DNA of 64,000 nucleotides. Source: a bacterium (GTDB taxonomy: Bacteria > UBA8248). Shown here piece after piece: positions 42,001-45,000 of the stretch. Within the stretch, counting starts at the first letter, position 1; the number at the start of each line of letters is the position of its first letter. The DNA is taken from the NCBI GenBank assembly GCA_965202625.1, contig CBDBBI010000010.1, positions 2,853,377 through 2,917,376 on the forward strand. Reading direction: 5' to 3'. Made by a program: the position numbers.

Positions 42001-45000
42001 CCGGTCGGCTTCTCCGGGTGGAAACGGGCGCTTCGGCAGGATTTCGACGCCGTCATGCGGTTCTGGAATCTCTCCAAGCCCACCGTCGCAGCCGTCCGCG
42101 GATACGCCCTGGCGGGAGGATGCGAACTGGCACTGGCCTGCGACGTCACCGTGGCCGCGGATGACGCCGTGTTCGGCGAGCCGGAGCTCAGGTTCGGCGC
42201 CGGAATCGTCGTCATGCTGCTTCCCTGGCTCACGAACCCCAAACTTGCGAAAGAGATACTCTTCACCGGAGAGGATCGCATATCGGCTCCTCAGGCTGCG
42301 CGCATGGGATTGGTGAATCGGGTGGTGCCCGAGGCGGAGGTGCTGGAGACGGCCCTCTCTCTGGCGCGGAGGATGGCGCGAATCGACCCGGGGCTCCTGC
42401 GGGCGACCAAGATGGCGGTGAACCGCGCGTATGAGATTATGGGAATGGGCCAGGCACTCGAAGCCGCCCTCGACATCGACCTCATGGTCGAGGGAAGGGG
42501 AACGGACGATAAGACGAAATTTTTGGAGATCGCGAGAAGCGAGGGTCTGCGCGCTGCGGTCTCATGGCGCGACGCCCGGTTTGAGGGTATGGAATAGTTT
42601 TCGTTCTGTATCCTCATATTGAGAGATTATGTGCCCAATTACTCTATGGTTTCTTAGTGGGTATTGCCCATAATTGTTCTTGTGATATTCATTAGCATAT
42701 CTCGTATCTCATATCTGATGAGGAGGTATTTTCTTTTCACTGGATGATCACACATCTCCACATTCTTGAATTTTTGATGGTCTCATGGTGTTCAAACCAT
42801 ACTCTTTTTCTATGTATCTTTTGGGTAGTTTGTGAATACAATCTCTTTTCTTCGCTGTATTGTATTTCTAATCTGAATTGTTCTAATATCGTTTAAAGGG
42901 ATTGGTGGAGTGCCGGGGAATCGAACCCCGCAAGCATGGCTCTCAAGACCTACTCGGGAACCTCCGCACCCCACAGCCCTGTTTGTCGTTCGCTGGACGA
43001 CGTCTAGCACGTTAAAACCGGCGAGCGACTCAGCCCTGCCCAGAGACGATCTGGGCAGGGCTTTCATTTTCTCTTTCTGGCAAGAACATCTCCTTCTAAC
43101 GGAAGTTGATCGATACTTTAACGCAGCGCGCGCCCAAAAGCAACCCATAGATTCGATAAAATTTAACATAGATTCGATAAAATTTAACTTTTGCAGATCG
43201 GTATTTTATTGACACAATGTCTCATATTGTGTATTTTTGGGGTTGCTTTTCTGTGTTTTGTCAATCAGAGGGTGCTATTGTGGATGATCTAACGAAAGCC
43301 ATAAGGAAACGTGCGGGTCGAAGCCCAAGTTATCCTGGAATAGATTTGGAAACTGCTTTTAAGCGCATTGAAGAGTTTTATGATAATGCCCAACATCACT
43401 ATTCCCACATCAAGTCTGTGGCAGAGCATTGGGGATATACGCCCGGAAGTGGTTCAGTAAATACTACTATTGCTGCTTTGATCAAATATGGATTTCTCGT
43501 AGACGAAGGGAAGGGGGATGAGCGCAGAGTTCGCCTTTCCGAGTTGGCGCTTGATATAGTTAAGGATAAGAGGGACGATACTTCAGAGCGCAATCAAAAA
43601 CTCACTAAAGCTGCCTTCAGTCCTGAAATCCATAAGGAAATGCATCAGACGTATGGAGATAATCTACCTTCAGACAGCGATATTTTATACGAATTAGAAA
43701 GAAAGAGGAAATTTACTCCAAATGGGGCGAGAGAGTTCCTCGCCCAGTATAAAAATACGCTAGAGTTTGTGCTCAAATTGGGGTCTAGTATAACTCCAAC
43801 TCTTCCGAGGGAAGGGAAGGGTGAGCAACAAGAAGCGGAAGCGAATAACCAGGCTGCTAGTGATGCTCGGACCGGTGGAACAGATGTAGTGCCGACCCCG
43901 CCATCGAAAGAGGAGGGCGTGCGGACAGTGACGATTCCTATGCTAGAAGGGGTGTGGGCTACTTTAACGGCCCAATTTCCGATGACTAAAGGAGATTGGG
44001 ACTATATGATAAAGATATTGCAAGCAATGGAGCCTAATTTAGTGAAAGGAAAATCCCAGTCTCAAGAGGTTGAAATAGACGAAGAGTCGAAGAATTCTTA
44101 AAACATTTCCGCAAACAAATTAAGAGAGTGAAAGGCGGGCGGTGTAGAATTGACGAGCGTTCATGCGCTTGCTCAAGGCGTCATCAGGAATGAGGCGCCG
44201 TTTTTGTTTTGATTGTTTTTGACTGCGAGGAGGAATACGAGCGATGCACCCACTCATCAAAAACCGCAGAAGCCTGCGCGCTTTCAGCGGCGCGCCGCCC
44301 GAGCCGGAGAAGCTCGAGGCGATGCTCGAGGCGTTTCGCTGGGCGCCGTCCTCGAACAATCGCCAGCCCTGGCGCGTCATCGTGGTGCGATCGAAAGAAG
44401 CGCATGAGAAGTTCAACGCTTGTTTGAGTGAGGGAAACCTCCAGTGGGCGACCGAGGCTCCGCTCAAGATGGTCATTCTGGGCAACCCCGAGGAGCAGCC
44501 GGAGCGCTTCGGGCAAGACCGCTATCTGCTCGACGTGGGAATGGCGCTTGAGAATCTTTTGCTTCAGGGAAGCGCTTTCGGTCTGACGGTTCACGCCATG
44601 GGAGGATGGGACGAGGCGAAAGCCCTTGAGAACTTCGGCGTTCCGGAGCCGTTTCGCGTCGCGGCCTTGTTCGCGGTGGGCTATCCGGGAAAGACCGAGG
44701 ATTTGCACCCGGAAGTCCAGGCGAAAGACAGGAAGCCGCCCAGCCGAAAAGACCCCGCCGAGATTTTCTTCTGGGATGGGTTCGGGGAGGCCGGAAAGCC
44801 ATAGCGGAGCGAGGTTTCGCGGCGCCTTTCGCGTTTGACCCCCCCTCGCCCAAGCCCATAGAATCCCGCGAGTTCGCGCGGGCGTTTCTCGCCGCTCCGG
44901 TGCTTCTGGAGAGGTGTTTCGCCTCGTTTGCGCGTCCTGCGTTTTCTTTTGCGCGTTAAGGGATAGTTTTGTTCTCATCAGATTTTATGCAGCAGTTGCT

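Follow-up and report, generated by a model that had tools for sequence, protein, structure and literature searches.

A terminator-like hairpin opposite a tRNA-like gene, and the cis-antisense RNA that it may end

Why should two hairpins that look as if they were written for one strand lie directly against the 5' end of a tRNA-like gene that is encoded on the other? The question is raised by positions 42974-43076 of a stretch of 64,000 nucleotides (nt), here called the window, from a bacterium of the GTDB lineage UBA8248 (assembly GCA_965202625.1, contig CBDBBI010000010.1, positions 2,853,377 to 2,917,376). A 70-nt gene resembling transfer-messenger RNA (tmRNA) and tRNA, abbreviated here as TLD, lies on the - strand of the window; an open reading frame (ORF) for a winged-helix protein runs away from it on the + strand, and the two hairpins stand between them (Table 1). 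An earlier note on this DNA had proposed that the hairpins belong either to a sense/antisense RNA pair or to an attenuator controlling production of the tRNA mimic. We consider it moderately probable that hairpin 2, the one nearer to the ORF, terminates a cis-antisense RNA, about 175 nt long, that spans the TLD, and that it also insulates the ORF promoter. Throughout, the genome carrying the window is denoted G000, its closest relative G007 and further relatives G015, G003 and G004, whereas L numbers designate individual loci; the ORF strand is the + strand of the window and the TLD strand is its - strand.

Two hairpins and their counterparts in related loci

Hairpin 2 has the make-up of a canonical intrinsic (Rho-independent) terminator, namely a GC-rich, perfect, short-loop stem, a U-rich tract directly 3' of it on the + strand, and G.U pairs only on the strand that would be transcribed. 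Its T tract is present on the + side of the stem with none on the - side, and a consensus scan reports it as a + strand terminator-like site. The perfect stem, the seven T residues among the ten bases that follow and the scan match bear out the earlier description of a 13-bp terminator with a U tract after the 42985-43029 hairpin. The predicted folding energy is -27.9 kcal/mol on the + strand versus -27.0 kcal/mol on the - strand, and G007 maintains the stem via a G:C to A:T double change. Unlike canonical terminators, hairpin 2 lies immediately upstream of and opposite to an RNA gene, and its T tract is not continuous in G000, while a third of the relatives have a poor one.

Hairpin 1 (42985-43029) is more stable on the + strand (-23.7 versus -15.8 kcal/mol, a difference of 7.9 kcal/mol). 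All three of its non-Watson-Crick pairs were said to be G.U on this strand, which both reading and folding of the sequence confirmed. G007 retains hairpin 1 despite a different upper stem, which suggests selection for the structure. In G015 it has shrunk to a 6-bp stem, and the -10 element of the TLD promoter appears to sit inside the loop of this remainder; the hairpin was not seen in more distant loci of the family. In our reading it is an additional stem-loop, specific to this lineage, of the antisense RNA or of a leader, and no role can be assigned to it. The 186-nt region as a whole folds better than its shuffled versions on either strand, with z scores of -4.28 (+) and -3.82 (-) and none of 200 shuffles as stable in either case. 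Searches of Rfam over 42974-43076 returned no family at the gathering score, and at E values up to 10 the hairpin region gave only a chance-level match to CRISPR-DR47 (43061-43100, E 0.5).

Related loci were recovered using an alignment of the 12 relatives of the ORF present in a large protein collection as the query; a single-protein query gave none. The hairpin counts that follow refer to the 30 non-identical loci in which the TLD and the ORF are divergent, and stems were located with a finder that scored G.T and A.C pairs alike, making detection strand-neutral. In almost all divergent loci whose spacers were inspected, 2-20 nt separate the TLD 5' end from a GC-rich hairpin; a strong hairpin abuts this end in 27 of the 30, and in 23 the hairpin at this position outscores at least 99 of its 100 shuffled versions. 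A T-rich tail follows on the ORF strand in 18 loci, whereas the mirror criterion on the TLD strand is satisfied by none (0/30). Wobble pairs have the same orientation: read on the ORF strand there are 20 G.T versus 5 A.C pairs, and four of the five A.C pairs are the outermost pairs of a single near-identical pair of loci. Fifty ordinary tRNA genes of G000 served as a control: none has an opposite-strand hairpin beside its 5' end, while 16 of the 30 family loci do by the same criterion (hand count). Energies compared over long segments favoured neither strand, as 15 loci were more stable on + and 16 on -; these segments were over-long, and the comparison was replaced by the strand-neutral stem finder. 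Taken together, the family data identify hairpin 2 as the window's representative of a conserved element that has the orientation of the ORF strand. The argument from G.U pairs, which the earlier note had made for hairpin 1, holds more strongly for this family hairpin, judging by its wobble pairs.

A promoter-like element is conserved at the other end of the TLD. From the candidate antisense promoter (Table 1), RNA synthesis is predicted to start at about 42894-42900, shortly ahead of the bases complementary to the TLD 3' end. The hexamers TTGTAT and TAATAT and their 18-nt spacing are common to G000 and G015; G007 keeps TTGTAT, its -10 element is TAGCAT preceded by TGc, and an insertion lengthens the 18-nt spacing. 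An extended TG is found in both G007 and G015. More generally, in 22 of the 30 divergent loci the pattern TAnnnT occurs antisense no further than 26 nt from the TLD 3' end, versus 12 of 30 on the other strand and a composition-matched shuffle rate of 0.36, and mostly ends 2-8 nt before the end of the TLD gene. Once five co-directional loci are added, where the TLD is on the same strand as the ORF, 27 of 35 loci have TAnnnT no more than 20 nt from the TLD 3' end; 14 of these 27 also show TG at the extended -10 position, where chance would give about 1 in 16. In each of the five co-directional loci, the strand antisense to the TLD carries TGcTAnnnT 4-7 nt past the TLD 3' end, and the element therefore follows the TLD and not the ORF.

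The putative TLD promoter of G000, on the opposite side of the hairpins, falls below the threshold of the consensus scan. Relatives have a conserved GTCAAG (CTTGAC on the TLD strand) beyond the hairpin, with a good -10 element at 17-18 nt in several loci. Promoter motifs in this position mean that the complement of the hairpin lies in the 5' leader of the TLD precursor; in G000, a promoter at 43115-43143 would place both hairpins in a leader of about 135 nt.

We infer from these elements a + strand transcript that would start at the -10 promoter just past the TLD 3' end (of the extended TG type in relatives), cross the entire 70-nt TLD in the antisense direction, continue through hairpin 1 and end at about 43066-43078. 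The predicted unit measures about 175 nt in G000; where a locus has only one hairpin, it would be shorter, at about 110-120 nt. Hairpin 2 would keep both antisense transcription and read-through from the left out of the separately promoted ORF. The tRNA-like RNA, for its part, would be made from the promoter beyond the hairpins and would carry the complement of both in its 5' leader. The antisense RNA might then lower the level of the tRNA-like RNA, either through a long perfect duplex, possibly followed by cleavage, or through interference between convergent transcription; here we reason by analogy with insertion-sequence and plasmid countertranscripts.

Table 1. Features of the window around the tRNA-like gene and its partner ORF.
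Feature	Position	Strand	Description
Candidate antisense promoter	42860-42889	+	-35-like TTGTAT (42860-42865), 18-nt spacer, -10 TAATAT (42884-42889)
tmRNA/tRNA-like gene (TLD)	42903-42972	-	70 nt; 7-bp acceptor stem with G3:U70, T arm, encoded CCA, no anticodon arm
First CAGCCCTG copy	42974-42981	+	Between TLD 5' end and hairpin 1
Hairpin 1	42985-43029	+	12-bp lower stem (two U.G) and 5-bp upper stem (one G.U)
Hairpin 2 (putative terminator stem)	43032-43062	+	Perfect 13-bp stem, 9 G:C, 5-nt loop
T-rich tract after hairpin 2	43063-43078	+	7 T among first 10 bases
Candidate TLD promoter	43115-43143	-	TTGCTT, 17 nt, TAAAGT; read by eye, 8/12 consensus positions
Tandem repeats (D2)	43146-43187		Two exact 21-bp repeats between the two divergent promoters; repeat search
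ORF promoter	43209-43237	+	TTGACA, 17 nt, TATTTT; 10/12 consensus matches (scan); downstream of hairpin 2
Inverted repeat, 7 bp	43212-43218 and 43226-43232		Overlaps ORF promoter; read from sequence
Winged-helix ORF	43280-44101	+	273 aa, N-terminal winged helix; conserved TLD partner

Antisense RNA, barrier, leader or operator

Several observations weigh against a terminated antisense RNA. Kinship among the family loci means that the counts above overstate independent support. Nine of the 27 strong hairpins have no T-rich tail, and at least one tail, that of L031, doubles as the -10 box of the opposite promoter; co-directional loci show no corresponding antisense terminator. Closer to the window, hairpin 2 of G007 has no T tract (3 T in 10), hairpin 2 is missing from G015, and the strand preference of hairpin 1 is lost in G007, where both strands give -22.5 kcal/mol. 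The antisense promoter candidate of G000 has no TG and a weak -35 element and is not listed by the consensus scan. Finally, the only RNA run with sequence from this locus (strandless metatranscriptome contigs) covers the ORF alone, at 43363-43531 and from 43601 onward; with no contig over 42900-43100, it is silent on transcription of the hairpins and on strand. By comparison of loci, the sense/antisense pair of the earlier note is a reasonable reading, resting on the + strand tails (18/30 versus 0/30), the excess of G.T over A.C pairs and the -10-like element antisense to the TLD.

Hairpin 2 could be a barrier only, blocking read-through from the DNA to its left and insulating the ORF promoter with no dedicated antisense RNA involved. 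Such a barrier would have the same + strand terminator signatures. The DNA beyond the TLD 3' end is variable cargo, comprising IS1-family, IS1595 and IS4/5 transposases and a MunI-type restriction-modification pair in different loci and an enoyl-CoA hydratase gene in G000. The ORF has its own promoter right after the terminator, and the antisense promoter of G000 is weak. A pure barrier leaves unexplained, however, why -10-like and TG elements stand by the TLD 3' end in 27 of 35 loci, among them all five co-directional ones, which have no ORF in need of a shield on that side; moreover, the left neighbours are on the other strand in most loci. We regard this explanation as somewhat unlikely.

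The hairpins might instead act on the - strand, in the 5' leader of the tRNA-like precursor, where they would serve processing or stability. The TLD promoter motifs lie beyond the hairpin, whose complement would be transcribed in such a leader, and the region beats its shuffles on both strands. The minimum-energy folds also offer a leader-trailer pairing. The earlier note had pointed out that CAGCCCTG is present twice, at 42974 and 43031, and reading the sequence confirms both copies (the second spans 43031-43038); by a rough estimate, the chance of some 8-mer repeat within 100 nt is about 1 in 10, making the repeat alone weak evidence. In the fold of the predicted + strand RNA the first copy pairs with 42894-42899, just past the TLD 3' end, and an analogous pairing is formed from different sequence in G007, where the repeat itself is not conserved and the sequence at the position of the first copy differs; an analogue in G015 was read from its sequence. 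Pairing with the TLD trailer suggests that the first copy is part of a leader-trailer helix and not a competitor of the terminator. The strand signals go the other way: wobble pairs favour + (20 G.T versus 5 A.C), T tails are on + with none of 30 loci showing them on -, and hairpin 1 loses 7.9 kcal/mol on the - strand. In addition, the TLD copies that stand beside tRNA genes in G003 and G004 have no such leader. A leader function for the hairpins is accordingly improbable in our estimate.

At the level of DNA, the perfect 13-bp inverted repeat could be an operator of the winged-helix protein or a recombination site; the fold of the partner protein and the polymorphism of the islet in the source sample (see below) would suit either. 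It is the pairing that is conserved across the family, however, and not the stem sequence, and neither the asymmetry of G.T over A.C nor one-sided T tails are expected of a DNA site. The tandem repeats nearer the ORF promoter (D2) are better operator candidates, which leaves the palindrome a decidedly improbable operator or recombination site. Least credible of all is the attenuator, in which the two CAGCCCTG copies would compete for CAGGGCT and toggle termination: the 8-mer repeat does exist, but on the + strand the partition function gives the alternative pairing (42975-42981 with 43056-43062) an equilibrium probability of about 1e-4. If it is forced, at a cost of +7.8 kcal/mol, a helix still stands against the U tract, so that the pairing would not act as an antiterminator; no mutually exclusive terminator and antiterminator pair is formed. 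The repeat is absent from G007, and the lone hairpin of more distant loci stands so close to the TLD, at 2-20 nt, that a competitor would have no space. The ORF has its own promoter after the terminator and may in addition be reached by read-through from upstream.

The tRNA-like gene and its partners

The tmRNA model of Rfam (RF00023) aligns with the TLD end to end, about 300 of its internal positions being replaced by 10 nt, and both of its ends are matched at 42903-42972 (-), on the strand for which a tRNA-like fold had been noticed. The score is 23.8 bits (E 1.8e-7), below the gathering score of 47, and ARAGORN makes no call for the TLD. With its G3:U70 pair, T arm, CCA end and missing anticodon arm the TLD is like the tRNA-like domain of tmRNA. 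It is unlike tmRNA in that it has neither an mRNA-like domain, which together with the gathering score defines membership in that family, nor pseudoknots, and a normal tmRNA (167.6 bits) exists elsewhere in the G000 genome. A displaced copy of the 3' end of the host tmRNA, or a copy left over at an integration site, was considered for the TLD and rejected: the true tmRNA differs in the acceptor and T stems. The reduced mitochondrial tmRNA of jakobids is a comparable reduced form of tmRNA.

A covariance model was built from six tRNA-like copies in the genus, in which the acceptor and T stems covary and G3:U70 is invariant. Model R1 gives the TLD 86.7 bits, and this is the sole strong match in the genome. 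Among the ORF loci, the TLD model (E up to 1) matches 41 of the 100 searched; nearly all matches are 120-370 nt upstream of the ORF. Most are on the opposite strand and have their 5' end towards the ORF, and in seven loci the match is on the ORF strand directly before the ORF. The family grades from anticodon-less forms to full tRNAs, which ARAGORN and Rfam call tRNA (with a UUA anticodon), tRNA-Ala, tRNA-Sec or tmRNA; one relative scores 49.1 bits with the Rfam tmRNA model, just above the cut-off of 47. The shading of TLD relatives into full tRNAs with UUA or CUA anticodons is a further difference from tmRNA.

Individual loci illustrate this gradation. A full-length tRNA with a UUA anticodon occupies the TLD position in L042-L044, L124-L126, L033 and L059, and by this anticodon these tRNAs look like ochre suppressors; L123 has a CUA-like loop, and a UUUACAC loop is common to many reduced forms. 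In G003 (L019) the TLD copy, at 1510-1582 (-), terminates in CTA instead of CCA; 13 nt separate it from a type-II tRNA of 88 nt (1412-1499, -) that has a CUA anticodon and is labelled tRNA-Pyl by ARAGORN. The TLD copy of G004 (L018, 1406-1481, +) follows by 13 nt a tRNA that ARAGORN calls tRNA-Ala(GGC), with an acceptor stem that has no G3:U70, and a second tRNA-Ala(CGC) is found about 500 nt further on.

The winged-helix ORF is the conserved partner of the TLD and the sole ORF inside an islet of low GC content (42-48%, versus about 62% around it) that is flanked by an enoyl-CoA hydratase gene and a nitroreductase gene. No family in Pfam, PHROG, PADLOC or NCBIfam matches the ORF, and the ESM Atlas gave unnamed clusters only. 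Its AlphaFold2 model has a mean pLDDT (predicted local distance difference test) of 69, and Foldseek returned only weak matches to MarR/ArsR-like winged-helix proteins (best E 0.029). The 21-bp tandem repeats and the 7-bp inverted repeat are likely binding sites of the winged-helix protein, and the ORF is probably autoregulated. GATAAA-like motifs are seen in relatives at the same place as the 43146-43232 repeats.

Loci with the ORF number about 105 (26 in genomes, 77 in metagenomes and 2 in viral contigs), and according to record titles they belong to Chloroflexota, Acidobacteriota, Actinomycetes, Alphaproteobacteria, Myxococcota, Nitrospirae and others. The module is chromosomal; a search for it in phages gave no match, and there was one weak megaplasmid match. 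The pairing of TLD and winged-helix ORF in some 100 loci of many phyla seems to be undescribed.

An IS1-family transposase gene (about 272 aa) stands 4-35 nt past the TLD on the same strand in L031 (712-1530), L059 (961-1785) and L064 (868-1740), all on the - strand, and may be a third member of the module. Such a gene was also seen by eye after the TLD in L074, L073, L072, L033 and L035, and in co-directional loci it diverges from the shared promoter region. Past the TLD of G007 (L028) there are instead a gene for a MunI-type restriction enzyme at 701-1300 (+) and one for an MT-A70 methyltransferase at 1239-1982 (-); G000 has about 300 nt of non-coding, low-GC DNA at this place.

Read data bear on the islet itself. 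In DNA sample X1, the most likely source of the assembly, the islet (42557 to about 44203) forms a separate 1646-nt unitig with a depth of 6.8. This unitig branches off a flank of depth 12.3 beside an alternative 137-nt unitig of depth 4.3, and has a loose end at 42586. From the branching and the depths, the islet appears to be carried by part of the X1 population only, and hence to be polymorphic in the source sample. A search of the islet boundaries for terminal repeats, inverted or direct, gave none. In G015 (L022, about 1095-1200), a second copy of the final 25-30 nt of the enoyl-CoA hydratase gene stands about 60 nt further downstream, where the islet has its left edge; this recalls the duplication of an attachment site.

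Relation to known antisense systems and meaning

Insertion sequences (IS) offer the closest comparison that we found for a cis-antisense RNA in this arrangement: RNA-OUT of IS10, art200 of IS200 and Asr9 of ISPpu9 are cis-antisense RNAs opposite the 5' untranslated region (UTR) of the transposase mRNA (PMC5006887, PMC4513863, PMC8450116). The likeness lies in a short structured RNA, an outward-facing promoter and full complementarity to the 5' part of the opposite transcript. Moreover, in several relatives the IS1-family transposase gene follows the TLD on the same strand, which puts the tRNA-like RNA in the 5' UTR of that gene. Compared with the IS examples, however, the target here would be a tRNA-like RNA and not a ribosome-binding site, G000 has no transposase gene, and the putative antisense unit is also present where the TLD precedes the winged-helix ORF. 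A full-text literature search, within the extracts that it returned, gave no description of a sense/antisense pair around a tRNA mimic.

Plasmids provide a second comparison. RNA I of the ColE1 pair RNA I/RNA II, like other plasmid countertranscripts, is an antisense RNA of about 100 nt with several stem-loops that ends at a terminator and is made from a convergent promoter. The predicted RNA resembles it in being complementary to the 5' part of a structured RNA; it differs in that no replication origin or primer function is evident here and that the module is chromosomal.

A wider and rather unlikely proposal, which we put forward as a speculation, is that the antisense RNA and an anticodon-less tRNA-like RNA of alanine identity form a control pair at the core of an undescribed mobile module, together with the winged-helix protein and often an IS1-family transposase, and that this module has reached six or more bacterial phyla. 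On this proposal the translation machinery would be the target of the tRNA-like RNA, as a chargeable decoy or as a nonsense-reading tRNA, with the antisense RNA as its antidote or throttle.

By themselves the hairpins are ordinary, a terminator and an extra stem-loop, and it is their context that gives them interest. If both RNAs are made, they would constitute a compact and widespread sense/antisense pair built on a tRNA mimic, and the predicted ends, promoter and terminator would provide a handle on the function of an orphan tRNA-like gene.

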